The notes below the pieces were generated by a model, which saw nothing but the letters and a program-made list of their open reading frames with translations, was not told where the DNA came from and ran no database searches. A stretch of DNA of 32,908 bases, taken from NCBI GenBank assembly GCA_021421665.1, contig GCA_021421665.1_4698.1; one strand, 5' to 3'. Below, in pieces: positions 3,386 through 30,477 of this stretch. This DNA is from a phage. The position numbers were made by a program, and so were the translations under genes. Each line of letters starts with the position of its first letter. Within the stretch, counting starts at the first letter, position 1.

Positions 3386-3646
3386 ATGATTAAATACACT
3401 GCTTATCAATTAACTAAAGACCGTAAGATAGGTGTTGAGGTTAAAGCTTGGAATGAAGGACACATCACTGTAGTTATAGAGTGTCTCCAAGACAATGGTG
3501 TGATGCTAAGAAGCTACCGTTGCTTCACCAAATTACGCTGCAAGGATTTAACTGAAGAATTATTCTTACGTTGTATTGTTGAATCTATTAAACTTATTAG
3601 ACCCTACGCCAAGCAAGTTGTAGGTAATGTCACAGTAGTACATTGA
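3386..3646 (+). CDS. hypothetical protein (86 aa)
   Basis: ORF-track ORF 3350..3646; ATG at 3386 is preceded by GAGG at a suitable distance; in-frame alternatives at 3350 (GTG) and 3359 (ATG). Confidence 0.5.
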   Translation: MIKYTAYQLTKDRKIGVEVKAWNEGHITVVIECLQDNGVMLRSYRCFTKLRCKDLTEELFLRCIVESIKLIRPYAKQVVGNVTVVH

Positions 3647-3668
3647 TTTACTGGACACTATAGAAGGA
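3646..3668 (+). promoter_or_regulatory. SP6-type phage RNAP promoter ATTTACTGGACACTATAGAAGGA
   Basis: Matches SP6 promoter consensus ATTTAGGTGACACTATAGAAGAG at 19 of 23 positions; predicted +1 G at 3663; intergenic. Confidence 0.8.
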
Positions 3669-3732
3669 ATGCCTAGGTAATCTAGGTTTATAAGGTAGTA
3701 TAGGTAGTTAAGTAAATATAGGAGGTATAAAT

Positions 3733-4059
3733 ATGTCTATGGTGACTACTCTGGTATTCGTGGCTCAATACTTTCGTGGCTTATCTAATAAGTTTAAGCA
3801 GAAGGCTATCTTTGCAATTCAAGAGCGTATCAATAAAATTGAAGAAGAACAAGTAGATGTAGAAGAACATCGTAGTTCTCAAATGATTGACTGCCACAAC
3901 CGCTACTATGCATCTCGTGATGACCTTAATGCGCGTCAAGTCAAAGAGGTTGAAGAGATGCTGGCCGCCACCAGCAAGAGCGTGACAAACTGGAAGCTGA
4001 CTTCGAAGAGAACAAGGCACCCATCGCCCTTGTACATCAAGCCGCATCTGACAGCTTGA
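3733..4059 (+). CDS. hypothetical coiled-coil-like protein; C-terminal part may continue in the -1 frame to 4109
   Basis: AGGAGG SD before ATG 3733. A second frame is open 3954..4109, lacks a start of its own, encodes a coiled-coil-like peptide and ends at the SD of the next gene. Confidence 0.5.
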   Translation: MSMVTTLVFVAQYFRGLSNKFKQKAIFAIQERINKIEEEQVDVEEHRSSQMIDCHNRYYASRDDLNARQVKEVEEMLAATSKSVTNWKLTSKRTRHPSPLYIKPHLTA

Positions 4060-4118
4060 AGAAAGAGATTGTTATGCTGGAGATTGAACTGGACAACCTA
4101 ACTAAGTAAGGAGTTATG

Positions 4119-4415
4119 ATGGAAGAAGTGATTCAAGCTAAACATGTAGGTATCATCTTTCGTGATCTAGAGCAGCGTAAAGTTGCAGGTCATACCCGTT
4201 TGGCTAAAGAAGATGATACAGCAATCGCTACTGTTGAACAAGCAGATGCCTATCGTGGGCCAGAGTTTACTCAAGGTGAAACTTGTCACCAATTGAGCCT
4301 GTCACTTTGTGACACTATGGCTAGTGTGAATGTGCAAGAAGTTGAAGATGGAGACTGTGTTAGCTACGTCTACCCTCTGGACACTGTTGCACGTATTAAA
4401 GTAATTCATAAATAA
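4119..4415 (+). CDS. hypothetical protein (98 aa)
   Basis: AAGGAG at 4108-4113 is 5 nt before ATG 4119 (ATG 4116 is also in frame); stop abuts the next promoter. Confidence 0.55.
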   Translation: MEEVIQAKHVGIIFRDLEQRKVAGHTRLAKEDDTAIATVEQADAYRGPEFTQGETCHQLSLSLCDTMASVNVQEVEDGDCVSYVYPLDTVARIKVIHK

Positions 4416-4436
4416 TTACTGGACACTATAGAACAA
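4414..4436 (+). promoter_or_regulatory. SP6-type phage RNAP promoter AATTACTGGACACTATAGAACAA
   Basis: Core GGACACTATAGAA conserved; predicted +1 G at 4431; intergenic. Confidence 0.75.
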
Positions 4437-4506
4437 TAGGACGTGGGTTTGTCAGAGACAGTAAATCCAAGGTGCTCAGTGAGCGTAAAGCCTAAGCACG
4501 TCCTAT
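4436..4506 (+). promoter_or_regulatory. large stem-loop at the 5' end of the transcript (RNase III-site-like)
   Basis: ataggacgtg (4436-4445) is a perfect 10-bp complement of cacgtcctat (4497-4506), enclosing 51 nt with sub-hairpins; further hairpins at 4531-4547 and 4551-4565; 188-nt untranslated leader before ATG 4625. Confidence 0.4.
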
Positions 4507-4624
4507 GATTGTAAAGTGTTTAACCGCCTTTTGTGCATCTTGCACAACCCGAATCAATCGGGCTTTCTAGTGAGTACATGCTTGTGCTCAGTACAAAGCT
4601 AACTGACAATAGGAGACTAAATAA

Positions 4625-5431
4625 ATGGCACGTGGTGATTTTGATTTTGGTGCTCAGGTTACTAAAGCTGAAGGTAAAGTATTTAAGAACCCTGAAGTTG
4701 GTGATCATGAAGCAGTAATCTCTGGCATCATTCATGTTGGTTCCTTCCAAGATATCTTTAAGAAAGGCAATACCACTGAAGTTAAGAAGCCAGCAAACTT
4801 TGTGCTTGTTAAGATTGTCCTGATGGGTGACGATGACAAGAACGAAGATGACTCTCGCATGGAACAATGGATGGCTGTGCCTCTGAAGTCTGGTGACAAG
4901 GCAACCTTGACTAAATTCCTGAATGCAGTTGACCCTAAAGAGTTGCTAGGTGGCTTCGATGACTTCATCGGCGAATGTCTGACTGCAACTATGGTTGGCT
5001 CTGGAGACAAGAATGACGATGGCTCATTCAAGTATGTCAACTGGAAGGGCTTTGGTGGTATGCCGGATAAGCTGAAGAAACTTGTCATTGCTCAGGTTGA
5101 AGAGGAAGGTCTGTCTATGACAGGTCACATTACCTTCGACAAGCTGACCAAAGAAATCCTTGATGATATTCCAGCTAACTTGGTGCGTCAATATTTCCTG
5201 AATGAGACACCTCGTGGTAAGAACCTGTCTGTTGCTGGCTCTCACGTAGAAGCAATCATTAAAGCTGCTCGTGAAGAAGACCCAGAGTGGAAGAAGTCTA
5301 AGAAGAAAGAGGATGAAGATGCTACCCCAGCTAATCGTAAGCCTCTTGATACTGGTGAGACTGTTCCTCAGGAAGTACCGGAAGCAGACAATGCGCCTGC
5401 ACCGGAAATGGATGAGGACGCGGAATACTAA
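4625..5431 (+). CDS. hypothetical protein (268 aa) with acidic C-terminal tail; candidate ssDNA-binding protein
   Basis: AGGAGA SD; C-terminus ...APEMDEDAEY is acidic and ends in an aromatic residue, as in T7 gp2.5 (...DGDF). Functional call is inference only. Confidence 0.55.
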   Translation: MARGDFDFGAQVTKAEGKVFKNPEVGDHEAVISGIIHVGSFQDIFKKGNTTEVKKPANFVLVKIVLMGDDDKNEDDSRMEQWMAVPLKSGDKATLTKFLNAVDPKELLGGFDDFIGECLTATMVGSGDKNDDGSFKYVNWKGFGGMPDKLKKLVIAQVEEEGLSMTGHITFDKLTKEILDDIPANLVRQYFLNETPRGKNLSVAGSHVEAIIKAAREEDPEWKKSKKKEDEDATPANRKPLDTGETVPQEVPEADNAPAPEMDEDAEY

Positions 5432-5440
5432 GGAGGTGGG

Positions 5441-5659
5441 ATGAAAGTACAAATCGTAACCCTGCATTGCAAGAAGGGCATTACAACGCTTGGCGGTAAC
5501 ACTTTTCACTCCTTCTCTGAGGGTGAGACATACGCCGACCTGCACTACATCTGGCGCGATGGACAGCACGTGGTGAACTATAGTGACCCCACTACGGGGA
5601 AACGCCACGGCGTATCGCTTCCGGCGCATGACATTGCGCAGGTGAACACAGTTTTATAA
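5441..5659 (+). CDS. hypothetical protein (72 aa)
   Basis: GGAGGTGGG SD immediately upstream of ATG 5441; tightly packed after the preceding gene. Confidence 0.55.
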   Translation: MKVQIVTLHCKKGITTLGGNTFHSFSEGETYADLHYIWRDGQHVVNYSDPTTGKRHGVSLPAHDIAQVNTVL

Positions 5660-5660
5660 A

Positions 5661-5676
5661 GTCTCACACGTGAGAC
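5661..5676 (+). other. hairpin gtctca-CACG-tgagac (family member)
   Basis: 6-bp stem with tetraloop seen directly; no T-tract follows; lies between a gene end and the promoter at 5692. Confidence 0.3.
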
Positions 5677-5691
5677 AAATAGGTGTCCGGT

Positions 5692-5714
5692 ATTTACTGG
5701 ACACTATAGAAGAG
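5692..5714 (+). promoter_or_regulatory. SP6-type phage RNAP promoter ATTTACTGGACACTATAGAAGAG
   Basis: 21 of 23 match to the canonical SP6 promoter; predicted +1 G at 5709. Confidence 0.8.
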
Positions 5715-5764
5715 AAGAATTTTAATCGGCGATAATGCCACAACCAACAAAAGGAGAATTTAAT

Positions 5765-6130
5765 ATGTTCAAGATTGAAACTATCGTAAACCGTGTTGTT
5801 AAAGGTGCTGCTCTGGTATCCGTTGAGTCTTTCATTATCGTCGATGAAGCCGACCAACTGGTAGCTGGTACTAAGGCTTATGATACTCGTGAAGAAGCTC
5901 AGGCTAAAATTGACAGCATGGGTAACTTCGCTGCTGGTCTGGAGTTTGCTCGTGCTTGTTTCCCTGAGCAGGCTGACAAAGCTCAGATTGGTAAGGCTAA
6001 CATCGTAGCTGAGTATCTGGATTGGATTGCTGCTGGTAAACCCGTGAAAGAAGCTAAGGCTGAAGAAGCTGAAGTAGTAGAAGACGTAGCTGCACCGGAA
6101 GTACCGGTAAGCGAAGAAGAAGAGTTTTAA
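5765..6130 (+). CDS. hypothetical protein (121 aa) with acidic C-terminal tail ending in Phe
   Basis: AAGGAG SD 8 nt before ATG 5765 (ORF-track start 5735 lacks an SD); C-terminus ...PEVPVSEEEEF; own promoter upstream and terminator-like hairpin downstream. Confidence 0.6.
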   Translation: MFKIETIVNRVVKGAALVSVESFIIVDEADQLVAGTKAYDTREEAQAKIDSMGNFAAGLEFARACFPEQADKAQIGKANIVAEYLDWIAAGKPVKEAKAEEAEVVEDVAAPEVPVSEEEEF

Positions 6131-6136
6131 TTGATG

Positions 6137-6168
6137 CCCTGTCTGCCTTAGTGTAGGCAGGGTCTTTT
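6137..6168 (+). terminator. terminator-like hairpin (ccctgtctgc / gtaggcaggg) followed by TCTTTT
   Basis: 10-bp stem with two G-U pairs, then a T-tract; same sequence family as the hairpin at 15316. Confidence 0.5.
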
Positions 6169-6194
6169 GCGTAATAGTTATTGGAGAATGAATT

Positions 6195-6500
6195 ATGCCG
6201 ACTATTGGATCTCGTTTAGTAGCAGACTATGTTTATGGTTGTGACTTAAAGCTGGGACAAGATTATTTTAAAGTAATCGTCTTGCTGGATGGAGAAGTGT
6301 TTCACACTAAAACATTCACCCTACCTGAGTTATTTGATTTAGGTTATTGGGGTTATACTTATCAGGCCATAGCAGACAAGGTGCTACTCAGTGTATTAGA
6401 GGAGTGGCCTACATGCGACCAAACTTCGACTTCGGAGCTACAGTATCGGAAGACAATAATCTCATCCTGTGGCCGACTGAAGGTAATCGAATCGCTTTAG
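6195..6500 (+). CDS. hypothetical protein (101 aa)
   Basis: GGAGA SD before ATG 6195; its 3' end overlaps the exonuclease start by 88 nt, so its true extent is uncertain. Confidence 0.4.
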   Translation: MPTIGSRLVADYVYGCDLKLGQDYFKVIVLLDGEVFHTKTFTLPELFDLGYWGYTYQAIADKVLLSVLEEWPTCDQTSTSELQYRKTIISSCGRLKVIESL

Positions 6501-7441
6501 TAGATGCTGATATGTTGCCTTATATCGTAGGGTATACAATCAGTGACATGACTTATGTACGAGCCACAACTCGTGTTAAGTCAGGGCAAGTCCCATCAAT
6601 CAAAGATACACCTGAGTGTAAGCAAGCGTGTGACCGTGTGAACTCCCTGCTTAACTCTTGGGTGTATGCAGCAGAGTGTGATGCTGCTAAGTTATTCATG
6701 ACGAAATCCGAAGCTAACTTCCGTGTTCGCCTAGCATTCACCAAGCCTTATAAGGGTCAACGTAAGACCGAGAAGCCTCCATTCTTCTATGAATTGCGAG
6801 AGCATCTCTTAGAGGTTCACGGTGCAATCTTGGCAGATGGAGAAGAGGCTGATGACCTTATGAGCATCGCACAATGGGACAGCCACCGACGCTTCCAGCA
6901 AGATACAGGTAACGAGTTTCCTATCGGTAGTCCAGAGCATAAAACATTCTCTGATACTTGCATCGTTTCCTTAGATAAGGATTTGATGATTGTTCCCGGT
7001 TGGCATCTTCAGCCGGGTCAAGAGAAGAAGTGGGTAGAGCCTATGGGTTGGCTTGAGCTACGCCGTAAGGCTAATGGTCAAGTCAAAGACCTAAAAGGTG
7101 CTGGCCTCATGTTCCATTATGCACAGATGATTATTGGTGATGATATCGATAACTACTCTGGCATACCGGGTCGTGGCGCTAAGTATGCCTATGATCTTCT
7201 CAAAGGATGTAAGACAGAGAAAGATTTGTACATGGCAGTTCTTGGTGCTTACAAGGCTAAGTTTGGACATGGACAAGTTAAGATTAAGAATTACCGAGGT
7301 GGTTATCGTATCGGCAAAGCCTTTGACTTGATGCTTGAATGTGGTCGCCTAGCTCACATGGCAAGATTCAAAGGTGATATATGGCGAGCCGATAAGAACC
7401 CAATCTTGTGGGGAGATGATGCGGAATGGTTAGCAAATTAA
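6413..7441 (+). CDS. 5'-3' exonuclease (T7 gp6-like, FEN family)
   Basis: GAGGAG SD before ATG 6413; blocks IALVDADMLPY, SLDKDLMIVP and IIGDDIDNYSGIPGRG resemble recalled T7 gp6 blocks ILVMDGDWL, SCDKDFKTIP and IKGDITDGYSGIAGWG. Confidence 0.8.
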   Translation: MRPNFDFGATVSEDNNLILWPTEGNRIALVDADMLPYIVGYTISDMTYVRATTRVKSGQVPSIKDTPECKQACDRVNSLLNSWVYAAECDAAKLFMTKSEANFRVRLAFTKPYKGQRKTEKPPFFYELREHLLEVHGAILADGEEADDLMSIAQWDSHRRFQQDTGNEFPIGSPEHKTFSDTCIVSLDKDLMIVPGWHLQPGQEKKWVEPMGWLELRRKANGQVKDLKGAGLMFHYAQMIIGDDIDNYSGIPGRGAKYAYDLLKGCKTEKDLYMAVLGAYKAKFGHGQVKIKNYRGGYRIGKAFDLMLECGRLAHMARFKGDIWRADKNPILWGDDAEWLAN

Positions 7442-7836
7442 AAGCATCGGAGGTGGCAGCTTATAAGAAGGAATTGCTAGATAAGCAAGGATGGAAGTGC
7501 CCTCTGTGCGGTGGCAGTCTAAAGGCTGTCGCCCCTAAAAACCGTGTACTTGATCATGATCATGAGACAGGCTTCTGCCGCGCTGTTGTATGCCGAGGCT
7601 GCAATGGTGCAGAAGGCCATATTAAGGGTGTTATCTCTGGTTATGGTAAGGCAGGTAACAGCCGTTATTTCCAGCTTCAATGGCTAGAGCGGCTATACGA
7701 ATACTGGAAGTTACATAGTACGCCTCAGACTGATAAGTTATATCACAAACATCAAACGGAGGCAGAGAAGCGCGAGGCTAAGAACCGTAAGGCACGCCTT
7801 GCTTATGCAAGAAAGAAGGAGGTTAAAGTTGGGTAA
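7426..7836 (+). CDS. endonuclease VII-like Holliday-junction resolvase
   Basis: CPLCGG...LDHDHETGFCRAVVCRGCNGAEG matches the T4 gp49 signature C-x2-C...DHDHE...G-x-C-x2-CN-x-AEG. Confidence 0.8.
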   Translation: MVSKLKASEVAAYKKELLDKQGWKCPLCGGSLKAVAPKNRVLDHDHETGFCRAVVCRGCNGAEGHIKGVISGYGKAGNSRYFQLQWLERLYEYWKLHSTPQTDKLYHKHQTEAEKREAKNRKARLAYARKKEVKVG

Positions 7837-8836
7837 GCTTCGCAGCTTGTACAAAGACTCCGAGGTACTTGATGCAATCGAGCAAGCTACCGACGAGAAA
7901 GGTAATGTTAATTATAAGGAGATGGCACGGGTGCTATCGTGTCATCCTGTGGGTAAGAAGATTACCCGCCAGTTGGCTCGATACTGGCACGGTCAATTCA
8001 AGAAGACCAAGAAGAATGGTGGTTATTACCAGACCCTTCTGCAAGAAGATAAGCGTATCAAAGAAGAGCGTAGGCTCAGGACTCCTGACCGCTACGAGGA
8101 TTTGGCTATTGTACCACTGCCTGACTCGCCTCATCGAAGTGTACTGGTAATCCCTGATACCCATGCGCCTTATGAGCATCCAGATACTTTAGAGTTCCTT
8201 GCAGCCGTGGCAGCACGTTATCGCCCAGACACAGTGGTACATCTTGGGGATGAGGCAGACAAACATGCCTTGTCATTCCACGACTCTGACCCCAATCTGG
8301 ATAGTGCTGGAGTGGAGTTAGAGAAGGCTCGTGTATTCATGCACAAATTGCACAAGATGTTTCCTGTGATGCGCCTGTGTCATTCTAACCACGGCTCTAT
8401 GCACTTCCGCAAGGCAAGCGCTAAGGGCATCCCTGTGCAATATCTACGTACCTATCGTGAGGTCTTCTTCCCGAATGGAGGTGGCGATCAGTGGGATTGG
8501 CAGCATACGCATGTACTTGAGTTGCCGAATGGCGAACAGGTAGCGTTCAAGCATCAACCTGCTGGCGTTGTCCTAGCAGATGCAGCGCATGAGCGTATGA
8601 ATCTTGTGTGTGGTCATCTGCATGGTAAGATGTCTGTGGAGTATGCACGTAATACTCATGAGCAGTATTGGGCTGTGCAGGGTGGCTGTCTGATTGATGA
8701 GTCGTCTCGTGCATTTGCCTATGGTCGTGAGTCTAAGTACAAGCCAGCATTAGGCTGTGTGGTTATTCTGGAGGGTGTACCACACATTGTCCCGATGCAG
8801 ACCAATAGCGACAATCGCTGGGTTGGTAAGATTTAG
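7829..8836 (+). CDS. calcineurin-like metallophosphoesterase
   Basis: Motifs VIPDTHAP (D-x-H), HLGDEAD (GD), SNHG (GNH-like) and CGHLHG; start placed at TTG 7829 after AGGAGG, with in-frame ATG 7805 as alternative. Confidence 0.7.
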   Translation: MGKLRSLYKDSEVLDAIEQATDEKGNVNYKEMARVLSCHPVGKKITRQLARYWHGQFKKTKKNGGYYQTLLQEDKRIKEERRLRTPDRYEDLAIVPLPDSPHRSVLVIPDTHAPYEHPDTLEFLAAVAARYRPDTVVHLGDEADKHALSFHDSDPNLDSAGVELEKARVFMHKLHKMFPVMRLCHSNHGSMHFRKASAKGIPVQYLRTYREVFFPNGGGDQWDWQHTHVLELPNGEQVAFKHQPAGVVLADAAHERMNLVCGHLHGKMSVEYARNTHEQYWAVQGGCLIDESSRAFAYGRESKYKPALGCVVILEGVPHIVPMQTNSDNRWVGKI

Positions 8837-8853
8837 TTGACACTATAGAACAA
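8831..8853 (+). promoter_or_regulatory. SP6-type phage RNAP promoter ATTTAGTTGACACTATAGAACAA
   Basis: Overlaps the stop codon of the preceding gene; predicted +1 G at 8848; a hairpin (aagggta...taccctt) follows within the first 30 nt of the transcript. Confidence 0.75.
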
Positions 8854-8903
8854 AGGGTAGGTGCTAGCTTACCCTTGATTGTATAGTGAATGGAGGAATT
8901 AAT

Positions 8904-9443
8904 ATGTCACACTATGTATGTAAGAAATGCCATAATCGCTATGATAATTGCACCTGTGATTATAGTAAAGGTGAAAGAATTAAAGCAGGTGATTATGTTA
9001 TACGACGTGCTGGCTGCCGCACTTTAGAGTGGAATAAGGTATGTAACCAATTAGGAAAGAAAGGGGATGCAACATTCAAAGTTACAAAGGATGAGCCTGT
9101 CAGCAGCGCTATTATGCTTGAAGGTATCGAAAATAGAGAATGGTATGCACCTTATTTCGAGCGAGTAGCTGCTCCCCAAGTTGTATCTGAGTCCAACATG
9201 TTGGAAAACAATATGGTTACTCAGCCTAAGCACTACGAGTTCTTCGAAGGTGTAGAAGCAATCACTATCATTGCCCGTAGTATGACCGAGAAGCAATTCG
9301 CTGGCTATTGCATGGGTAACGCCTTGAAGTACCGCCTGCGTGCAGGTAAGAAGTTCAACACTGAAGAAGACCTGAAGAAAGCAGATTACTACAAAGAGTT
9401 ATTCCAGAAGCATCGTCACGAATGTATTGATGAGGACATTTGA
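8904..9443 (+). CDS. T7 gp1.7-like protein (nucleotide kinase family) with N-terminal Cys cluster
   Basis: C-terminal block ARSMTEKQFAGYCMGNALKYRLRAGKK...KADYYKELFQKH resembles recalled T7 gp1.7 (ARSMTVEQFKGYCFGNILKYRLRAGKK...KADFYKELFEKH); N-terminal CKKCHNRYDNCTC; GGAGG SD. Confidence 0.6.
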   Translation: MSHYVCKKCHNRYDNCTCDYSKGERIKAGDYVIRRAGCRTLEWNKVCNQLGKKGDATFKVTKDEPVSSAIMLEGIENREWYAPYFERVAAPQVVSESNMLENNMVTQPKHYEFFEGVEAITIIARSMTEKQFAGYCMGNALKYRLRAGKKFNTEEDLKKADYYKELFQKHRHECIDEDI

Positions 9444-9444
9444 T

Positions 9445-9618
9445 ATGGAAGGTAAATTGTATCGAGGTTATTTCGGAAATCTATATAAGGTTAGCAGTAG
9501 AGGCTTTGTGTTGGCTTCCAATGATGAAGGTGCAACGTGGTATTTAAGTGCTTACGGTTCTAACTTAGCATACTTTAAAGCTGCAATATACAAAGGTGTT
9601 ATGAAGGAGGTTGGATGA
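9445..9618 (+). CDS. hypothetical protein (57 aa)
   Basis: ATG 9445 just after the upstream stop, GAGGA 8 nt upstream; stop overlaps the ligase start. Confidence 0.4.
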   Translation: MEGKLYRGYFGNLYKVSSRGFVLASNDEGATWYLSAYGSNLAYFKAAIYKGVMKEVG

Positions 9619-10562: not shown

Positions 10563-10749
10563 TAACATGAAGGCAACTCGTGCAGTTGAGGTGGCAGAAG
10601 CTATCTTCGAAACCTTATCCTGTGGCATGGAAGTGCCATATAACTTACTGGCTGATGCAGAAGAATTAGGTCTTTCTGTAGAAGCTATCCAAGAGAAAGT
10701 AGAGGAACTTTATGGTACAGATGAAGAAGAAACCGACGATTTCATTTGA
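10534..10749 (+). CDS. small acidic hypothetical protein (71 aa)
   Basis: ORF-track ORF with GGGAGA 8 nt upstream; acidic C-terminus ...DEEETDDFI; overlaps ligase end by 29 nt. Confidence 0.45.
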   Translation: MTKMNQISFDNMKATRAVEVAEAIFETLSCGMEVPYNLLADAEELGLSVEAIQEKVEELYGTDEEETDDFI

Positions 10750-10753
10750 AGGG

Positions 10754-11340: not shown

Positions 11341-11349
11341 GGAGATAAC

Positions 11350-11556: not shown

Positions 11557-11557
11557 T

Positions 11558-14034: not shown

Positions 14035-14057
14035 ATTTACTGGACACTATAGAAGGG
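14035..14057 (+). promoter_or_regulatory. SP6-type phage RNAP promoter ATTTACTGGACACTATAGAAGGG upstream of the capsid gene
   Basis: Predicted +1 G at 14052; the transcript begins with hairpin gggaga-AATG-tctccc at 14055-14070. Confidence 0.8.
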
Positions 14058-22222: not shown

Positions 22223-22244
22223 TGATAGGCACTATGGAGGAACT

Positions 22245-25200
22245 ATGGAACAAGATATTAAGACTAATTGGGCTGGATATGTCCAGTCTACTCCTGAGCC
22301 GTTTTCTATTGAGGCGGCTCCGGTATCGGCTCCTACGATACGCCAGCGTAATGAGTTACAAGAGCAAGTTCTTGAAGCTAAAGCGGACGCGGATATCTTA
22401 GGGGCCGTAGGTGCTGCCTTCCAGAATGAGTGGTTGGCATTCGGAGGTAAGAGGTGGTATGACCGTGCCACTGCTGATTTCCCACCTCAGCCTGACTTTG
22501 AAATCCAGCCAGATCGACGTGAAGCACTCCGCTTCAAATATGGCACAGATATGATGCAGAAAATCATAGAAGGAGTCAGATCCGAGGATGAGCTAAACTT
22601 CCGTATTCAGAATGCAGATGATGACCTTGAGCGTAACAAACGTATCGCTCAGGCAGGCTGGGTAGGATCTGTGGCAACGATTGGCGCTGCTGTGCTTGAC
22701 CCTGTGGGATGGGTTGCCTCTATCCCAACTGGCGGTGCAGCTAAGGTTGGACTTGTAGGGCGTGCTGTACGTGGTGCTGTCGCTGCTGGTGTGAGTAATG
22801 CCGCTATTGAGTCCGTATTAGTCCAAGGCGACATGACCCGTGATTTAGATGACATTATGGTAGCACTAGGCTCCGGTATGGCTATGGGTGGCGTCATTGG
22901 CGCTGTAGCGCGTGGTAGGGCCACTAAGCTCAGTGAGCAAGGGGATGACAGAGCGGCAAGCGTTGTGCGCAGTGCAGATGCAGGGGACCGCTATGTTCGC
23001 GCCGTTGCCGATGACAGTATCGGTGCGATGCGTGTTAAGGGCGCAGAGGTTCTCACTGAGGGTGCATTCGATATCCCCAGCAAAGGTGAAGATTTACTGA
23101 AAACCTTACAGCGAGAAGGTAATGCGATTGATATGACACCTCGCCGCTGGGCAGGAACTATGTCTGCCCTTGGTACTGTCGTGCATTCCTCTCAGGATGC
23201 AAGTATCCGAGGTCTTGGTGCTCGCCTGTTTGAATCTCCCCAAGGCTTAGGTATGCAGAAGGCATCTGCTAGTCTCATGCAGAATACTAACTTGAATCGC
23301 CTGAAGTCTGCCGATATGAACCGTTTTAATGATGGGTTTGATTTATGGCTTAAAGAGAATAACATCAATCCAGTGGCAGGGCATACCAACTCTCATTATA
23401 TACAGCAATACAATGAAAAGGTGTGGGAGGCAGTACGTATTGGCATGGACGAGTCTACACCTAAGTCTATCCGTATGGCGGCTGAGGGACAACAGACTAT
23501 GTACAGAGAGGCGCTGGCTTTACGTCAACGCTCTGGTGAAGCGGGGTTTGAAAAGGTAAAAGCTGACAACAAATATATGCCTGATATCTTTGATAGTATG
23601 AAAGCCAGAAGTCAATTTGCTATGCATGATAAAGAAGATATCATTGAGTTATTCTCTCGCGCTTACCAGAATGGCGCTCGTAAGATTCCAAAGGAAGCAG
23701 CAGATGAGATTGCACGAGCACAGGTAAATCGTGTTGCTGATGCTACCTTAACTGGACGGCTTAGTTTTGAAAAGGCAATGTCAGGTCAAACCAAGGCAGA
23801 GTATGAAGCTATCATGCGCAAGGCTGGCTTTAGTGATGAAGAGATTGAAAAGATGGTAGAAGCTCTGGATAACAAGGAAACCAGAGATAATATCTCTAAC
23901 CGAGCTAAGATGAGCCTAGGGTTAGATGTTACTCAAGAGTACAATGGCATTCGTATGCGTGATTTCATGAATACCAATGTGGAAGAGCTAACGGATAACT
24001 ATATGAAAGAGGCGGCAGGTGGTGCTGCATTGGCTCGCCAAGGTTTCTCTACCTATCAGGCGGCGCTTAATGCAATTGACCTTGTAGAACGAAATGCACG
24101 AAACGCCGCTAAGGATAGTAAAGCAAGCCTAGCCTTAGATGAAGAAATTCGACAGATGCGGGAAGGCATTCGTCTAATCATGGGCAAGTCTATTGATGCG
24201 GACCCTCAAGCGTTATCCACTAAAATGATGCGCCGTGGTCGTGATATAACGGGTGTACTCAGATTGGGCCAGATGGGGTTTGCACAGCTAGGCGAACTTG
24301 CTAACTTCATGGGTGAGTTTGGTGTTGCTGCAACCACTCTGGCTTTAGGTAAGCAATTCCGCTTCACCTCTAAGGCTTTGCGTAATGGCGATGGCTTCTT
24401 CCGAGATAAGAACTTGGCAGAAGTAGAGCGAATGGTAGGCTACATTGGTGAGGATAACTGGTTAACAACCAAGGGTGCACGTCCCGATGAGTTTGGTGAT
24501 GTAACCACAGTGCGAGGGATGATGGCCCACTTTGACCAATCCATGAACTCAATACGCCGTGCTCAGACAAACCTATCACTCTTCCGCATGGCTCAAGGTT
24601 CTCTGGAGCGAATGACTAATAGGCAAATAGCCCTATCTTTCATTGACCACCTTGAAGGTAAGAAGGTTATTCCTCAGAAGAAACTGGAGGAACTTGGTCT
24701 TACTCAAGAGTTCATGTCTAGTCTACAGAAGCACTACGATGCTAATTCTAAGGGTTCTGGTCTGCTTGGCTTCGATACCATGCCTTATGCAATGGGTGAA
24801 ACCTTAGCTAATGCTATCCGTCGTAAGTCTGGTTTAATTATTCAGCGTAACTTCATTGGTGATGAAGGTATTTGGATGAACAAAGCACTAGGTAAGACGT
24901 TTGCACAGCTTAAGTCATTCTCTCTGGTATCTGGTGAGAAGCAATTCGGCCGAGGTATCCGGCATGATAAGATCGGTCTAGCTAAGAAGACAGCCTTTGG
25001 CTTTGCTTTGGGTTCGATGGTGTATGCAGCGAAAGCCTATGTGAACTCTATCGGACGAGAAGACCAAGATGAATATCTTGAAGAGAAGTTATCGCCTAAA
25101 GGATTAGCCTTTGGTGCGATGGGCATGATGAGTACAACTGCTGTATTTAGTTTAGGTGGAGACTTCTTAGGCGGCCTAGGTGTTCTACCTTCTGAGTTAG

Positions 25201-25430
25201 TGCAATCCCGTTATGAGGCTGGCTTTCAGACTAAGGGTTTGATAGACCAAATACCATTAGTAGGTGTTGGTCAAGATGCATACCGTTTAGCAGATTCTAT
25301 AACTAAGTATGCAGAGGGTGATACAGATGGTGTAGATGTAGCACGTAGAGTTTTACGCTTAGTGCCACTGACTAATGTAATAGGTGTCCAAAACGCATTG
25401 CGTTATGGCTTAGATGAACTGGAGGACTGA
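22245..25430 (+). CDS. large internal virion / core protein (gp16-like)
   Basis: 1061 aa, largest gene of the block; GGAGG SD; Gly/Ala-rich segment suggests a membrane-interacting region; assignment by size and position. Confidence 0.75.
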   Translation: MEQDIKTNWAGYVQSTPEPFSIEAAPVSAPTIRQRNELQEQVLEAKADADILGAVGAAFQNEWLAFGGKRWYDRATADFPPQPDFEIQPDRREALRFKYGTDMMQKIIEGVRSEDELNFRIQNADDDLERNKRIAQAGWVGSVATIGAAVLDPVGWVASIPTGGAAKVGLVGRAVRGAVAAGVSNAAIESVLVQGDMTRDLDDIMVALGSGMAMGGVIGAVARGRATKLSEQGDDRAASVVRSADAGDRYVRAVADDSIGAMRVKGAEVLTEGAFDIPSKGEDLLKTLQREGNAIDMTPRRWAGTMSALGTVVHSSQDASIRGLGARLFESPQGLGMQKASASLMQNTNLNRLKSADMNRFNDGFDLWLKENNINPVAGHTNSHYIQQYNEKVWEAVRIGMDESTPKSIRMAAEGQQTMYREALALRQRSGEAGFEKVKADNKYMPDIFDSMKARSQFAMHDKEDIIELFSRAYQNGARKIPKEAADEIARAQVNRVADATLTGRLSFEKAMSGQTKAEYEAIMRKAGFSDEEIEKMVEALDNKETRDNISNRAKMSLGLDVTQEYNGIRMRDFMNTNVEELTDNYMKEAAGGAALARQGFSTYQAALNAIDLVERNARNAAKDSKASLALDEEIRQMREGIRLIMGKSIDADPQALSTKMMRRGRDITGVLRLGQMGFAQLGELANFMGEFGVAATTLALGKQFRFTSKALRNGDGFFRDKNLAEVERMVGYIGEDNWLTTKGARPDEFGDVTTVRGMMAHFDQSMNSIRRAQTNLSLFRMAQGSLERMTNRQIALSFIDHLEGKKVIPQKKLEELGLTQEFMSSLQKHYDANSKGSGLLGFDTMPYAMGETLANAIRRKSGLIIQRNFIGDEGIWMNKALGKTFAQLKSFSLVSGEKQFGRGIRHDKIGLAKKTAFGFALGSMVYAAKAYVNSIGREDQDEYLEEKLSPKGLAFGAMGMMSTTAVFSLGGDFLGGLGVLPSELVQSRYEAGFQTKGLIDQIPLVGVGQDAYRLADSITKYAEGDTDGVDVARRVLRLVPLTNVIGVQNALRYGLDELED

Positions 25431-26404
25431 TGGGTTATACTTTCACAGAACACACAGCCAACGGTACGCAAGTGACTTATCCTTTTAGGTTTGCTGGTAG
25501 GGATAAGGGTTATCTTCGTGCCTCAGATGTAAGAGTGGATACTCTTCAAGGTGATACTTGGACTAAGGTCACATCTGGCTGGCAACTAACTGGTACAAAC
25601 CAGATTACTTTTGATGTAGCACCAGCAGCAGGTTTGAAGATTCGTATTCGAAGGGAAGTACCAAAAGAGAACCCATATGCAGAGTTTGACCGTGGTGTTA
25701 CCCTTGATATGAAATCTTTGAATGGTTCCTTTATTCATAACCTAGAGGCAACCCAAGAACTTCTAGATGGGTTTTACCCTGAAGGGTACTACATCAAACA
25801 GAATGTATCATGGGGCGGTAATAAGATTACAGACCTAGCAGATGGTACAGCACCAAATGATGCAGTGAATAAAGGGCAGCTTGACTCCATTGATAAGAAA
25901 CACACAGACTGGAATAAGACGCAAGATGAGCAGATTGATGGTATCATTCGTAGCTTCGTCAGCAACGTATCCCACCGTTCTTTACCTTGGACCTATTCAG
26001 CAGTAGGTGGTGAAGATAAGGTAAAACCTCCTTTCTTCTTCCAAGCAGCACTAGTGTGGCGCGACGGTGTATATCAGGATGAGCAAGCTGGTGCTTTTGA
26101 AATCAGAGATAATACTATATTTCTAGCTAAGCCTTTGCTTAGAAAAGGTGAGCGCGTGTCTGTTCTCCTTGGCTCTCGTGTAGCAGTACCAGACAAAGGT
26201 GAGGTTCTCCAGCTTGAGTTCAACACAGTGGCAGGCTATACGGAGATAAATCTAGGTATGCGTGTATCAGAGGTGTCTGTCTTTCTTGATGGGCTTCTCC
26301 AATCTCTAGGCTCTTATAAGCTTATAGATGACAATAAGTTGGTATTTAGTGAGCCACTACCAGATTGCACCGTACTGGTTCAAGTTAAATCTGATACAAA
26401 GTAG
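25430..26404 (+). CDS. tail fiber/tailspike adaptor protein (T7 gp17 N-terminal-domain-like)
   Basis: 324 aa; N-terminus TANGTQVTYPFRFAGRDKGYLRASDVRV resembles the T7 gp17 N-terminal virion-attachment region; no long receptor-binding domain. Confidence 0.7.
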   Translation: MGYTFTEHTANGTQVTYPFRFAGRDKGYLRASDVRVDTLQGDTWTKVTSGWQLTGTNQITFDVAPAAGLKIRIRREVPKENPYAEFDRGVTLDMKSLNGSFIHNLEATQELLDGFYPEGYYIKQNVSWGGNKITDLADGTAPNDAVNKGQLDSIDKKHTDWNKTQDEQIDGIIRSFVSNVSHRSLPWTYSAVGGEDKVKPPFFFQAALVWRDGVYQDEQAGAFEIRDNTIFLAKPLLRKGERVSVLLGSRVAVPDKGEVLQLEFNTVAGYTEINLGMRVSEVSVFLDGLLQSLGSYKLIDDNKLVFSEPLPDCTVLVQVKSDTK

Positions 26405-26415
26405 GAGGTGTATTT

Positions 26416-26610
26416 GTGGTAGACTCAGATATCATCAATGATACGCTGAAGTGGGTTCCGGGTGGTATTGTAACCAGTACAACCCTCTTAGGTATCAGTT
26501 GGGAAAACTGGGTTTACATCTTAACCGCAATCTATACTATGTTGCAGATTGGGGAATGGGTATGGACCCGAGTTATAGGATGGAGGGAGAAGCGTGAGCG
26601 TACACAATAA
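26416..26610 (+). CDS. holin (T7 gp17.5-like)
   Basis: GTG start 7 nt after AGGAGG; 64 aa, one transmembrane segment; SWENWVYILTAIYTMLQIGEWV resembles recalled T7 gp17.5 SLNEWFYVAAIAYTVVQIGAKV. Confidence 0.8.
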   Translation: MVDSDIINDTLKWVPGGIVTSTTLLGISWENWVYILTAIYTMLQIGEWVWTRVIGWREKRERTQ

Positions 26611-26896
26611 ACATGCAGCTACAGAGGATGAGGTTGGCATTCTGCATGGTGCTATTACCAAAATCTTCAATAAGAAAGCACAGGCTATACTGGACACTAT
26701 AGAAGAAGACCCAGATGCAGCACTGCATTTAGTGTCTGGTAAAGACATTGGTGCTATGTGCAAATGGGTTCTTGATAATGGTATTACCGCTACACCTGCT
26801 GCACAGCAGGAAGAGTCCAAGTTGTCTAAGCGCCTCAAGGCTATCCGAGAGGCATCTAGTGGTAAGATTATTCAGTTTACAAAAGAGGACAATTAA
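26594..26896 (+). CDS. terminase small subunit (gp18-like)
   Basis: 100 aa, GTG start after GGAGGGAG, immediately upstream of the large terminase; positional assignment. Confidence 0.65.
   Translation: MSVHNKHAATEDEVGILHGAITKIFNKKAQAILDTIEEDPDAALHLVSGKDIGAMCKWVLDNGITATPAAQQEESKLSKRLKAIREASSGKIIQFTKEDN
26685..26707 (+). promoter_or_regulatory. intragenic SP6-promoter-like sequence CTATACTGGACACTATAGAAGAA
   Basis: Core CTGGACACTATAGAAGA is intact but the two upstream positions differ from all intergenic copies; lies inside the small terminase coding sequence. Confidence 0.35.
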
Positions 26897-28794
26897 TGGC
26901 TAAGGCAAGAGAATCACAAGCGGAGGCTCTTGCCAGATGGGAGATGCTACAGGAGTTACAGCAGACCTTTCCTTACACAGCGGAAGGTTTGCTTCTCTTT
27001 GCAGATACAGTTATTCATAATCTGATTGCAGGCAACCCTCATCTGATTCGTATGCAGGCCGATATCTTAAAGTTCCTATTCTATGGGCACAAGTATCGAC
27101 TCATCGAAGCGCCTCGTGGTATCGCTAAGACAACACTCTCAGCAATCTATACAGTCTTCCGTATCATCCATGAACCACATAAGCGTATCATGGTTGTATC
27201 CCAAAATGCCAAGCGAGCAGAGGAAATCGCCGGTTGGGTAGTTAAAATATTCCGTGGCCTAGACTTCCTTGAGTTTATGCTACCTGACATATACGCTGGA
27301 GATCGTGCATCCGTCAAAGCCTTTGAGATTCACTACACGTTACGCGGCAGTGATAAGTCGCCTTCTGTGTCCTGTTATTCTATTGAAGCAGGTATGCAGG
27401 GTGCTCGTGCGGATATTATCCTAGCAGATGACGTAGAGTCTATGCAGAATGCTCGTACAGCAGCAGGTCGAGCCTTACTTGAGGAATTAACCAAGGAGTT
27501 TGAATCTATCAACCAGTTTGGTGATATCATTTATCTTGGTACACCTCAGAACGTAAACTCTATCTACAACAACCTACCTGCTCGCGGCTACTCTGTTCGC
27601 ATCTGGACTGCACGTTACCCTTCGGTGGAGCAAGAGCAATGCTATAGTGACTTCCTTGCACCTATGATTGTGCAGGATATGAAGGACAACCCAGCACTTC
27701 GCTCAGGTTATGGCTTGGATGGCAACAGTGGTGCACCTTGTGCCCCTGAAATGTACGATGATGACGTCCTGATTGAGAAGGAAATATCGCAAGGTGCTGC
27801 TAAGTTCCAGCTCCAATTCATGCTTAACACTCGCATGATGGATGCAGACCGCTATCCTCTACGTCTGAATAACCTCATCTTCACCTCATTTGGCACAGAG
27901 GAAGTCCCTGTGATGCCTACATGGAGTAATGACTCTATTAACATCATTGGAGATGCACCTAAGTATGGCAATAAACCTACAGACTTCATGTATCGACCTG
28001 TTGCCAGACCATATGAATGGGGTGCTGTTACCCGTAAGATTATGTATATCGACCCGGCGGGTGGCGGTAAGAATGGGGACGAAACGGGTGTAGCGATTGT
28101 CTTCCTGCATGGCACATTCATTTACGTGTATCAGTGCTTCGGAGTACCGGGCGGATACCGTGAATCGTCTCTGAATCGCATTGTGCAGGCCGCAAAGCAG
28201 GCGGGTGTTAAAGAGGTATTCATTGAGAAAAACTTTGGTCATGGCGCGTTTGAGGCGGTAATTAAGCCATACTTTGAACGTGAGTGGCCCGTTACACTGG
28301 AAGAGGATTACGCTACCGGACAGAAAGAGTTGCGTATCATTGAGACGCTAGAGCCGCTCATGGCGGCGCACAGGCTCATCTTCAACGCTGAGATGGTCAA
28401 GTCTGACCTTGAGTCAGTACAGCACTATCCGCTTGAACTACGCATGTCCTATAGCCTTTTCAATCAAATGTCGAACATCACGATTGAGAAGAACAGCCTC
28501 CGGCACGATGACCGCTTAGACGCTCTGTACGGCGCTATACGGCAATTAACTTCTCAGATAGACTATGACGAGGTTACACGGATTAATCGCCTCAGAGCGC
28601 AGGAGATGCGCGATTATATCCAAGCTATGAATACACCTCACCTCCGCAGGGCAATGCTCTATGGAGATTATGGGACTGAGCGAAGAGTGACCAACACTTC
28701 TGTAGCGATGCAGCAGCGGGTTTATGGTCAGAACTACCGGAATAAGTCTTCCAATAGAAATACCATTTCTGCAAGGATTTCAAGGACTTATTAA
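26896..28794 (+). CDS. terminase large subunit (gp19-like)
   Basis: 632 aa; Walker A-like EAPRGIAKTT; acidic catalytic stretch ADIILADDVE; position after small terminase. Confidence 0.92.
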   Translation: MAKARESQAEALARWEMLQELQQTFPYTAEGLLLFADTVIHNLIAGNPHLIRMQADILKFLFYGHKYRLIEAPRGIAKTTLSAIYTVFRIIHEPHKRIMVVSQNAKRAEEIAGWVVKIFRGLDFLEFMLPDIYAGDRASVKAFEIHYTLRGSDKSPSVSCYSIEAGMQGARADIILADDVESMQNARTAAGRALLEELTKEFESINQFGDIIYLGTPQNVNSIYNNLPARGYSVRIWTARYPSVEQEQCYSDFLAPMIVQDMKDNPALRSGYGLDGNSGAPCAPEMYDDDVLIEKEISQGAAKFQLQFMLNTRMMDADRYPLRLNNLIFTSFGTEEVPVMPTWSNDSINIIGDAPKYGNKPTDFMYRPVARPYEWGAVTRKIMYIDPAGGGKNGDETGVAIVFLHGTFIYVYQCFGVPGGYRESSLNRIVQAAKQAGVKEVFIEKNFGHGAFEAVIKPYFEREWPVTLEEDYATGQKELRIIETLEPLMAAHRLIFNAEMVKSDLESVQHYPLELRMSYSLFNQMSNITIEKNSLRHDDRLDALYGAIRQLTSQIDYDEVTRINRLRAQEMRDYIQAMNTPHLRRAMLYGDYGTERRVTNTSVAMQQRVYGQNYRNKSSNRNTISARISRTY

Positions 28795-28815
28795 TTACTG
28801 GACACTATAGAAGGA
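28793..28815 (+). promoter_or_regulatory. SP6-type phage RNAP promoter AATTACTGGACACTATAGAAGGA
   Basis: Starts at the terminase stop; predicted +1 G at 28810; followed by a 130-nt AT-rich leader with TAGGT repeats and hairpin gggtgtac-TACT-gtacaccc (28887-28906). Confidence 0.8.
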
Positions 28816-28946
28816 AGGCCCAGAGAATAAGAGAAATAATAGGTAATATATAGGTTAACCTAGGTTATATAGGTATGCCTTAGTATGGGTGTACTACTGT
28901 ACACCCTATTCCTTCCTTACTATATTTACATAATAGGAGAGAGACA

Positions 28947-29225
28947 ATGGCTAATGATTATAGTAGTCAACCATTAACAGGTAAGTCTAAGAGAAAGCAG
29001 GTACAACCTGTAAGTGAAGCACTAATGCTTCCGGTAATCCCAAAAGAGGAAGCTAGTAAGAAAAGCAATGTTATTAATGATGCCACCAAATCAGGTAAAC
29101 AGAAAGGGGCAATGGTATGCCTTGAAGTGGACGATGGTGTATTGAAGATTGCTATCGCGGTTGATGGCAAAGAAGATTCAGAGTGGAAGTTAGTGACAGT
29201 GGAACCCACTGTTACCCCAGCTTAA
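28947..29225 (+). CDS. hypothetical protein (92 aa), paralog A of a tandem pair
   Basis: AGGAGAGAGA SD; shares the block SGKQKGAMV-LE--D--L-IA-A and C-terminal VTPA with the next gene. Confidence 0.6.
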   Translation: MANDYSSQPLTGKSKRKQVQPVSEALMLPVIPKEEASKKSNVINDATKSGKQKGAMVCLEVDDGVLKIAIAVDGKEDSEWKLVTVEPTVTPA

Positions 29226-29243
29226 GAAGAAGAGGAGGATTAC

Positions 29244-29528
29244 ATGGCTAAATATGGTGAAGGTTCTGTTACTGGTCAGGCTTTTCGAGTAAAAGCAGTA
29301 CAAACTATTGCAACGGCAATCCCTATGCCTGTTGTTAAAGAAGCAGACCTTAAGAGTAAAGATCACCCTATAAACATCAAACACCTGTCAGGTAAACAGA
29401 AAGGTGCAATGGTTGCTCTTGAGAAAGCGGACACAACCTTACATATTGCTGTTGCACGTGGTAGTGAACCAACAGACCCTTGGGATGTAACTGGTATGGA
29501 ATCGGACGCTGTTACTCCGGCAGGGTGA
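29244..29528 (+). CDS. hypothetical protein (94 aa), paralog B of a tandem pair
   Basis: GAGGAGGA SD; shares SGKQKGAMVALE and a VTPAG C-terminus with the preceding gene. Confidence 0.6.
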   Translation: MAKYGEGSVTGQAFRVKAVQTIATAIPMPVVKEADLKSKDHPINIKHLSGKQKGAMVALEKADTTLHIAVARGSEPTDPWDVTGMESDAVTPAG

Positions 29529-29532
29529 TACC

Positions 29533-29880
29533 ATGATGCTTAACAAATACTTCAAGCGTAAAGAGTTCGCTTGCCGTTGTGGATGCGGTACATCCACTGT
29601 TGATGCTGAGTTACTACAGGTAATCACAGATGTGCGTGAGCACTTTGGCGTACCTGTAGTTATCACCTCTGGTCATCGCTGCGTTAAGCACAATACCAGT
29701 GTAGGTGGGGCCAAGAACTCCATGCATCTTACAGGTAAGGCTGCTGATATTAAAGTATCTGGCATCTCACCTTCTGAAGTGCATAAGTATCTTACTGGCA
29801 AATACCAAGGTAAGTACGGCATTGGTAAGTATAATTCCTTCACGCACATTGATGTACGCGATGGGTGTGCACGATGGTAA
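29533..29880 (+). CDS. peptidase M15-family zinc peptidase, probable endolysin
   Basis: N-terminal EFACRCGCG and zinc-binding pattern SGHR...SMHLTGKAADI...THIDVRD; located in the lysis region. Confidence 0.75.
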   Translation: MMLNKYFKRKEFACRCGCGTSTVDAELLQVITDVREHFGVPVVITSGHRCVKHNTSVGGAKNSMHLTGKAADIKVSGISPSEVHKYLTGKYQGKYGIGKYNSFTHIDVRDGCARW

Positions 29881-29988
29881 GATGCATTGAATGGTGTGAA
29901 CGCATGGTTGCTAAGGCTTCAGAGGAAGGAAACTATGAGGATTGGCAGAACTATTCGGATTTGTTAGCTCAATGGAAAAGGAGATGCA

Positions 29989-30138
29989 ATGAAAAAGCTG
30001 TTTAAATCTAAGAAGGTGGTAGGTGCACTGATTGCACTGGTGATTGCCCTTGTTTCTGTAGGTCTTGGCGTAGACCTTGGTGAAGGTACTGAAGGTTCCG
30101 TAACTGACGTGGTATGCCAAGTAATCACCTGTGAATAA
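29989..30138 (+). CDS. small membrane protein (49 aa), lysis-cassette associated
   Basis: AAGGAG SD 6 nt before ATG 29989; one hydrophobic helix VVGALIALVIALVSVGLGV; below ORF-track cutoff. Confidence 0.4.
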   Translation: MKKLFKSKKVVGALIALVIALVSVGLGVDLGEGTEGSVTDVVCQVITCE

Positions 30139-30352
30139 TTTGCTTGAGGTGTTGGCAGGTCTTATTGGCCTGCTGCTTGCCGCTAAGAAGAAGAAAGAAG
30201 AGAAGGAGGCACAAAGTGAAGCGAATCATGTTAGCGACAACCCTGCTGATTGGTTCGCTGATCACTTCAGGGTGTCAGACGGCGTTACCAGAGAGTCAAA
30301 AGGTAAAGCCACTGAAGCCGACGCTGACGGAAGTGTACGAAGTGGACGATAA
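30131..30352 (+). CDS. putative i-spanin (Rz-like), short
   Basis: GTG start; N-terminal hydrophobic segment LLEVLAGLIGLLLAA followed by a charged region; overlaps the lipoprotein ORF in another frame. Only 73 aa, so uncertain. Confidence 0.4.
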   Translation: MNNLLEVLAGLIGLLLAAKKKKEEKEAQSEANHVSDNPADWFADHFRVSDGVTRESKGKATEADADGSVRSGR

Positions 30353-30425
30353 GGTCTGCTTTAGTAAGCCTGATGCTACAAAATTAGGTTTGTATATTCT
30401 TTCGCTAGAACGCGGTTACAAATAA
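30216..30425 (+). CDS. putative o-spanin (Rz1-like outer-membrane lipoprotein)
   Basis: Signal peptide with lipobox LITSGC after AAGGAGG (GTG 30216 or ATG 30228); Pro-rich mature region; begins inside the Rz-like ORF and extends past it. Confidence 0.55.
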   Translation: MKRIMLATTLLIGSLITSGCQTALPESQKVKPLKPTLTEVYEVDDKVCFSKPDATKLGLYILSLERGYK

Positions 30426-30454
30426 TACATTGCTTTATGTATCAATCACCTACG

Positions 30455-30477
30455 ATTTAGGTGACACTATAGAAGAG
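30455..30477 (+). promoter_or_regulatory. canonical SP6 promoter ATTTAGGTGACACTATAGAAGAG upstream of the tailspike genes
   Basis: Exact 23 of 23 identity to the SP6 promoter as used in cloning vectors; predicted +1 G at 30472. Confidence 0.9.

Follow-up and report, generated by a model that had tools for sequence, protein, structure and literature searches.

Promoters and the right end of the window

The subject of this analysis is a predicted promoter at the right end of contig GCA_021421665.1_4698.1 (GenBank assembly GCA_021421665.1), a stretch of phage DNA of 32,908 nucleotides (nt) that is referred to here as the window. The window comprises the DNA-polymerase-to-tailspike portion of a K1E/K1-5-like phage genome (Vectrevirus, Molineuxvirinae). 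Over its first 25 kb it is 93% identical to the Vectrevirus phage NIC06P3 and about 89% identical to K1E, K1-5 and many E. coli phages; the RNA polymerase gene lies outside it. The promoter stands at 30455-30477 ahead of the first of two tailspike genes, and megablast homology between the window and all Vectrevirus relatives stops at 30477-30508, right after it. As argued below, recombination with an SP6-like Klebsiella phage very probably brought in this promoter along with the start of the tailspike cassette.

With +1 taken as the G of GAAG and each site spanning -17 to +6, the core GACACTATAGAA occurs eight times in the window, always on the plus strand, and is absent from all of 100 dinucleotide-preserving shuffles of the same DNA. 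The eight sites are predicted promoters for the phage's own single-subunit RNA polymerase. They take five forms, and the native Vectrevirus form is ATTTAC(T/C)G-GACACTATAGAA. Variation falls at -12, -11 and -10, with -16 added in the AATTA form, and -9 is an invariant G. An earlier, sequence-only reading of this DNA had described seven intergenic promoters in three classes that varied at -9 to -12. Its seven coordinates and upstream octamers are exact, but a site at 26685 was missed, the classes have to be replaced by the five forms, and the variable region is off by one position. The word intergenic is also loose, as four of those seven promoters overlap the stop codon of the upstream open reading frame (ORF). 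No further site within five mismatches of either 21-mer consensus was found in the window besides 22843-22863 (ATTTAGATGACATTATGGTAG), which lies within the gene 36 homologue, differs from the SP6 21-mer at four positions and probably matches by chance.

Among the eight sites, the predicted tailspike promoter ATTTAGGTGACACTATAGAAGAG (30455-30477, plus strand) is an exact SP6-type consensus. It alone in the window has no mismatch to the textbook SP6 20-mer ATTTAGGTGACACTATAGAA, just as the sequence-only reading held, and it also agrees with the 23-bp SP6 consensus ATTTAGGTGACACTATAGAAGNG, with GAG at +4 to +6. G at -11 is found only here, and T occupies this position at the other seven sites. 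Those seven combine the core with a pyrimidine at -11, a location on the coding strand and a gene boundary, one of them being intragenic. Promoters were compared across the window and seven complete genomes, namely K1-5, K1E, NIC06P3, SP6 and the Klebsiella phages K1-ULIP33, IME184 and vB_KpnP_HY (KpnP_HY below), the last three being SP6-like Molineuxvirinae without an assigned genus. In that comparison the seven sites have the same form as their orthologues in K1-5, K1E and NIC06P3, with single-base differences at most (for example AATTACTA in K1-5, or CAATACTG versus CTATACTG).

A probable imported tract

At the orthologous tailspike position, K1-5 and K1E carry ATTTACTG, and the window, NIC06P3 and SP6 carry ATTTAGGT; the comparison with SP6, K1-5 and K1E had been proposed from the sequence alone. 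The difference extends beyond the promoter. Upstream flank and promoter together read cagtgtcttacg-ATTTACTG-GACACTATAGAA in K1-5 and K1E and caatcaccta(c/t)g-ATTTAGGT-GACACTATAGAA in the window and NIC06P3, and there are two leader types, one common to K1-5, K1E and SP6 and another in the window and NIC06P3. Despite this difference in sequence, both leader types fold into two hairpins at roughly corresponding positions, at 30472-30548 in the window and 39282-39366 in K1-5 (L001); the energies are -33 and -34 kcal/mol for folded stretches that take in the first codons.

In a search with window positions 30446-30640, nine SP6-like Klebsiella phages had the window type, at 88-98% identity, and among Vectrevirus records NIC06P3 alone had it. 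The promoters of K1-ULIP33, KpnP_HY and IME184 are of the GGT type genome-wide, and the Klebsiella tailspike promoter is identical to that of the window over the 12-nt upstream flank and the first 17 nt past GACACTATAGAA, reading caatcacctacg-ATTTAGGTGACACTATAGAA-gagatagagtggcgatc. The minimal imported tract covers 30419-30561 on the plus strand: the promoter with 36 nt of sequence upstream of it, followed by the leader and the opening codons of tailspike 1. Identity over this tract is 94-97% to K1-ULIP33, KpnP_HY and IME184 and 77-78% to K1-5, K1E and SP6, while the backbone at 30000-30399 is 74-77% identical to the two Klebsiella phages having the region and 86-92% identical to K1-5 and K1E. 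Over 105 informative sites that separate 12 Vectrevirus from 6 Klebsiella-type sequences, the window switches cleanly from the Vectrevirus to the Klebsiella type between 30399 and 30419. The left switch falls at about 30335-30374 in NIC06P3 and at 30211-30275 in the IMG/VR locus L016, giving three chimeric genomes with three distinct left junctions, each upstream of the promoter. A local jump in identity to a donor lineage and a donor signature foreign to the recipient are what horizontal transfer leaves behind, and both are found here.

Two candidate origins were discarded. In-situ mutation of the tailspike promoter is ruled out because the flanks on both sides change along with it, and SP6 itself is ruled out as the donor because its flank and leader are of the K1-5 kind. 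Of the sequence-only proposal that cassette and promoter came together from an SP6-like donor, the transfer is supported, with SP6-like Klebsiella phages taking the place of SP6 as the matching lineage.

Turning to the wider distribution, records with the K1-5-type promoter and leader segment number 59 for Escherichia and 17 for Vectrevirus; 27 of these are at least 99% identical to K1-5 and, at that level of match, must carry ATTTACTG. An unbiased pattern scan of IMG/VR with ATTTANNN returned 18 loci. Eleven have a Vectrevirus background, ten of them with CTG (ATTTACTG) and one (L016) with GGT; the others, four of the Klebsiella type and three of the SP6 type, are all GGT. A metagenome scan for the window-type junction yielded five Klebsiella-type contigs and three L016-like chimeric contigs. 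The sequence-only reading had named as counter-evidence a recurrence of the same promoter variants with no link to the cassette. This pattern was sought among the relatives and not encountered; the SP6 form is tied to a particular cassette.

Tailspike module and gp37 adaptor

Tailspike 1 (30549-32444, plus strand) is a protein of 631 amino acids (aa) of the right-handed beta-helix, depolymerase type (Pfam PF13229, E = 2e-12). Its gene most likely starts at the ATG at 30549, behind the ribosome-binding site (RBS) AAAGGAGG, and this start gives the promoter a leader of 77 nt. In a tblastn search of phage records, its closest relatives are Klebsiella phage proteins at 51% (a Klebsiella jumbo phage) and about 35% aa identity. 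The body of the gene has no DNA-level match in the Vectrevirus relatives and no close relative in an IMG/VR protein-pattern scan, and the metagenome DNA scan recovered the promoter and leader tract and not the body.

A spacer lies between the two tailspike genes (32552-32635, plus strand). The region 32552-32664 is 96% identical to NIC06P3 and 85-91% identical to Klebsiella phages, and no match at E <= 1e-3 was found in K1-5, K1E or SP6. Tailspike 2 follows at 32636-32908 on the plus strand, where its first 91 aa, with a weak pectate-lyase-like Pfam match below the curated cut-off, are encoded before the gene runs off the window. A direct repeat of about 60 nt, about 80% identical between its copies at 30502-30560 and 32587-32647, spans the leader end, the RBS AAAGGAGG and the initial codons (ATGGCTYTAACT) of the two tailspike genes and is likely to be a recombination and docking-end module. 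A small open frame (MEEDIDVETVSLQGYFSAPMPPEVPKEGAMEE) lies at 32453-32551 between tailspike 1 and the spacer, with a hairpin and T-rich run past it at 32561-32590.

The gp37 tail adaptor (25430-26404, plus strand) matches the T7 tail-fibre N-terminal domain PF03906 (E = 4e-9) and phrog_2710 (E = 7e-121). It is 97% identical to its counterpart in NIC06P3 and about 64% identical to that of every other Vectrevirus. Residues 1-180 are Vectrevirus-like, at 72-90% identity to K1-5. Residues 181-324, encoded from about 25970 to 26404, form a non-K1-5 allele whose identity is 73-75% and then about 50% to the Klebsiella phages, and 50% and then 35% to K1-5. Locus L016 aligns with the window unbroken across gp37. 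The aligned stretch takes in 25914-26491, for which the K1-5-type loci L009 and L015 lack a match. In every case examined, the C-terminal allele co-occurs with the SP6-type tailspike promoter. The tailspike-binding end of the adaptor and the docking end of the tailspike would thus travel together, 4 kb apart, a sign of selection for compatible docking; the promoter just happens to lie within the tract. The arrangement as a whole is that of an SP6-group tailspike cassette, with the adaptor and with beta-helix tailspikes at the right end, behind a phage promoter and with a repeated docking-end and leader sequence.

Position -11 and the RNA polymerase

In T7-type enzymes, work on T7 and T3 has established that residue 748 reads promoter positions -11 and -10. 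In the phages compared here, every one of the 31 Klebsiella phage promoters has G at -11 (41 of 41 with SP6 included). Of 41 Vectrevirus promoters, 39 have T or C; the other two are the tailspike promoters of NIC06P3 and of the window. At the T7 N748 equivalent, the polymerases of SP6 (R746) and the Klebsiella phages have Arg, and those of K1-5, K1E and NIC06P3 have Ser; the alignment register at this position was confirmed by a HMMER alignment to the T7 chain 1aro_P. The two polymerase groups are about 85% identical and have 45 fixed differences, the T7 N748 equivalent among them, and they share Lys and Ser at the positions aligned to R756 and Q758. The base at promoter position -11 and the amino acid at the T7 N748 equivalent vary together. 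Judging from NIC06P3, K1-5 and K1E, the resident polymerase of the window would be of the Ser type.

In a published study, residue 748 sets the -11/-10 preference in T7-type polymerases, K1E and SP6 form separate polymerase-promoter specificity clusters, and the K1E and SP6 enzymes are reported not to obey T7-derived recognition rules (PMC11880802). A second study describes a polymerase designated 'No. 2049' with the loop LRVSTCLMGEIKM and a consensus promoter that contains ATTTACTGGACACTATAG; its normalised signal was 3.5% on the SP6 promoter versus about 2% on its own ATTTACTGG-type consensus (PMC13029058). The specificity loop of 'No. 2049' is near-identical to the Ser-type loop. No promoter cross-reactivity data were found in PMC6412113 or PMC4837284.

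Origin of the tailspike promoter

The favored account is one of homologous recombination, with the left crossover in the conserved end of gene 45 at 30399-30419. The tract would have carried the donor's promoter, leader, RBS and tailspike docking end, and the matching gp37 C-terminal domain is also present. The donor would belong to a lineage with an Arg polymerase at the T7 N748 equivalent and promoters that always have G at -11, and the resident lineage would have a Ser polymerase and native promoters with T or C at -11.

Several observations weigh against this account. The imported tract is proven only for about 140 bp plus the spacer at 32552-32664, and the tailspike body does not trace to the donor lineage; since that body has no close relative, the actual donor would be unsampled. 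The gp37 C-terminal domain is just 50-75% identical to the Klebsiella phages and so would not have come from the same close donor in the same recent event. The window does not include a polymerase gene, which leaves the Ser-type assignment dependent on relatives. Finally, polymerase 'No. 2049' comes from a related genus (Rodentiumvirus-like), and the promoters tested with it also differed downstream of +1 (PMC13029058).

The main alternative is that GGT was selected or made in place to alter the strength or timing of tailspike transcription, so that the activities of ATTTACTGG and ATTTAGGTG would differ. Positions -12 to -10 do lie in the region read by the specificity loop of T7-type polymerases, with residue 748 setting the -11/-10 preference (PMC11880802), and three chimeric lineages, with tracts that differ by 3-6%, have all retained GGT. 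Tuning of this kind is nonetheless quite improbable. The three base changes are accompanied by a Klebsiella-matching flank and leader, such that ancestry alone explains them, and in each lineage the tailspike promoter is the consensus of the cassette's own lineage. In vitro, the output of a polymerase with a Ser-type loop was similar on both forms (PMC13029058), and read-through from upstream promoters is likely. The sequence-only suggestion that positions -9 to -12 tune promoter strength likewise finds no support, the other variants being accounted for by stop codons and coding, as described below, with the in vitro output similar (PMC13029058).

GGT at the tailspike promoter of SP6 and all the Klebsiella phages could also be expected if an SP6-type promoter had been retained here from an ancestor and the K1-5-like phages had switched to CTG. 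Retention is very unlikely, given that 94-97% identity to the Klebsiella phages in the tract against 74-77% in the flanking backbone is incompatible with vertical descent. Moreover, SP6's own flank and leader are like those of K1-5 and unlike those of the window, and all other window promoters have T at -11, never G. An assembly artefact, in which a Vectrevirus and a Klebsiella phage were wrongly joined, is scarcely credible as the source of the junction. Assemblers can be misled by conserved repeats such as the promoter and leader, but a like junction is present in the separately deposited NIC06P3 and in four contigs of other data sets, with three breakpoints, and the linked gp37 C-terminal allele sits 4 kb away within normal Vectrevirus sequence.

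Use of the putatively imported promoter

If the promoter was acquired by recombination, it may be either a tuned element or a hitch-hiker. A plus-strand scan of 28793-30455 for terminators that might isolate the tailspike promoter found one terminator-like hairpin, at 28887-28906 just downstream of the 28793 promoter, and no convincing terminator between 28793 and 30455. With that one hairpin near 28793, transcripts reading through from this promoter should reach the tailspike genes and would cover them as well. GGT also persists in the three chimeric lineages. Together, the in vitro output, the read-through and the persistence of GGT favor an imported promoter that is a tolerated hitch-hiker over one that is tuned, and the Ser-type enzyme presumably still uses it.

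A more tentative and somewhat unlikely extension is that the Ser-type, K1E-like polymerase may read -12 to -10 loosely, which would let SP6-type host-range cassettes enter with their promoters intact and make promoter compatibility one factor in tailspike exchange between genera. If so, the reverse transfer of a CTG promoter into an Arg-type phage would be disfavored, and the one-way pattern of transfer in this small sample would fit such relaxed reading.

Coding overlap and the native promoter forms

The remaining predicted promoters are all on the plus strand. The Vectrevirus consensus ATTTACTGGACACTATAGAAGGA (3646-3668) stands ahead of the gene 15 homologue; the orthologous promoters have the same form in K1-5, K1E and NIC06P3 and read ATTTAGGT in SP6 and the Klebsiella phages. 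Further promoters precede the homologues of gene 16 (AATTACTGGACACTATAGAACAA, 4414-4436), gene 18 (ATTTACTGGACACTATAGAAGAG, 5692-5714) and gene 23 (ATTTAGTTGACACTATAGAACAA, 8831-8853), the major capsid gene at 14108-15307 (ATTTACTGGACACTATAGAAGGG, 14035-14057) and the gene 41 homologue (AATTACTGGACACTATAGAAGGA, 28793-28815).

The overlap with an upstream stop codon mentioned above amounts to 1 nt at 3646, 2 nt at 4414 and 28793, and 6 nt at 8831. At 3646, the A at -17 is the final base of the TGA stop of the ORF at 3350-3646, a frame of 98 aa with no Pfam match and a weak match to a PHROG of unknown function. At the two AATTA sites, the AA at -17 and -16 is formed by the last two bases of a TAA stop, which belongs to the ORF at 4116-4415 (gene 15.5 homologue) for 4414 and to the large terminase gene for 28793; the latter overlap is also present in SP6 and the Klebsiella phages. 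At 8831 (ATTTAGTT), the gene 22 homologue (7799-8836) ends in the TAG at -14 to -12. Gene 22 ends in TAA in SP6 and the Klebsiella phages, which yields ATTTAAGT.

The orthologous promoters of K1-5, K1E, NIC06P3, SP6 and the three Klebsiella phages show the same overlaps and forms, a recurrence that, for SP6 and the Klebsiella phages in particular, indicates that the three stop-codon forms are inherited. The AATTA form at the 4414 position is kept in all seven compared genomes, and its stop overlap holds in the window and five of the seven. The gene 16 promoters of K1-ULIP33 and IME184 keep AATTA, yet merely a 32-codon open frame ends there, so that the overlap is a sufficient explanation and maybe not the sole one. 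With that reservation, coding constraint would suffice to explain four departures from the native form, namely the two AATTA sites, the 8831 site and the site within the small-terminase frame described next; the fifth departure is the tailspike promoter.

The remaining promoter-like site, CTATACTGGACACTATAGAAGAA (26685-26707, plus strand), lies inside the small-terminase gene (gene 39, 26594-26896), 211 nt upstream of the start of the large-terminase gene (26896-28794). The small-terminase codons ATA CTG GAC ACT ATA GAA GAA (ILDTIEE) supply its sequence. K1-5, K1E and NIC06P3 have the site; SP6 and the Klebsiella phages lack it. The corresponding peptide is ILDAIED, near-identical, in the Klebsiella phages and ILAAVEE, more divergent, in SP6. 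Since the Klebsiella phages have nearly the same peptide without the promoter, the site would be specific to Vectrevirus and made largely by synonymous codon choice. A promoter seems to have arisen here inside a reading frame, with the large-terminase gene next downstream.

Other mosaic junctions in the window

A second junction is found at the left of the window. The segment at 3371-3643, missing from K1-5, K1E and NIC06P3, is SP6-like, with about 91% identity to SP6 across 3301-3600; it abuts the promoter at 3646, and the promoter and everything downstream are of the Vectrevirus type. The junction falls within ATTTA, and the resident CTG form was kept as a result. The side of the crossover on which a promoter lies seems to be all that decides between a native and a foreign one.

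Additional mosaic patches appear in a 300-nt identity profile at 6001-6600, 8700-9600, 16501-16800 and 24001-24300, and several of their boundaries adjoin promoters. The patch at 6001-6600 is nearer to SP6 and NIC06P3 than to K1-5 and K1E, the region directly downstream of the 8831 promoter is unlike K1-5, and 16501-16800 is poorly matched by all Vectrevirus compared.

Relation to known systems and implications

Exchange of tailspike cassettes among K1-5, K1E, K5 and SP6 was reportedly described by Scholl et al. in 2001 and 2002 and by Leiman et al. in 2007. The window resembles those phages in the make-up of its right end, where a gp37 adaptor is accompanied by one or two tailspike genes with a phage promoter in front, and in that homology between relatives ends at the start of the tailspike ORF. 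It departs from them in the position of the crossover, which in the usual exchange lies downstream of the promoter and leader and keeps the resident promoter, whereas here it lies upstream and includes the donor's.

Among individual phages, K1E and K1-5 share with the window a backbone of about 89% identity and seven of eight promoters in form and position, including the intragenic gene 39 site, but they have ATTTACTG and another leader before the tailspikes and another gp37 C-terminal allele. SP6 (Zindervirus SP6) shares the -9 to +3 core of all eight sites and promoter positions that are orthologous gene by gene. It differs in having G at -11 throughout, where the window has T at seven of eight sites, in its tailspike flank and leader, and in having Arg at the T7 N748 equivalent where the window's closest relatives have Ser. 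The Klebsiella phages are 85-98% identical to the window in the tailspike promoter, 12-nt flank, leader, RBS and inter-tailspike spacer, but only about 65-80% identical over the rest of the genome, and their tailspike bodies are different genes. As in T7 and T3 (N748D), lineage-specific bases at -12 to -10, chiefly -11, covary with the residue aligned to T7 N748; here the pair is Arg/Ser and not Asn/Asp, and discrimination may be weak in the Ser-type enzyme.

Both tailspike cassette exchange and the split between K1E and SP6 promoters are already described, and the current understanding of them is unchanged. The window is a clean and unusually legible new instance of ordinary phage mosaicism. 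Its odd promoter acts as a built-in marker of the recombination tract, recording that a host-range module was spliced into a K1E-like phage from another polymerase specificity class, and the base at -11 (G versus T or C) offers a simple lineage marker for spotting such imports in SP6-group phages. The finding also suggests that the tailspike cassettes of SP6-type Klebsiella phages may be movable into K1E-type backbones without replacement of their promoters.

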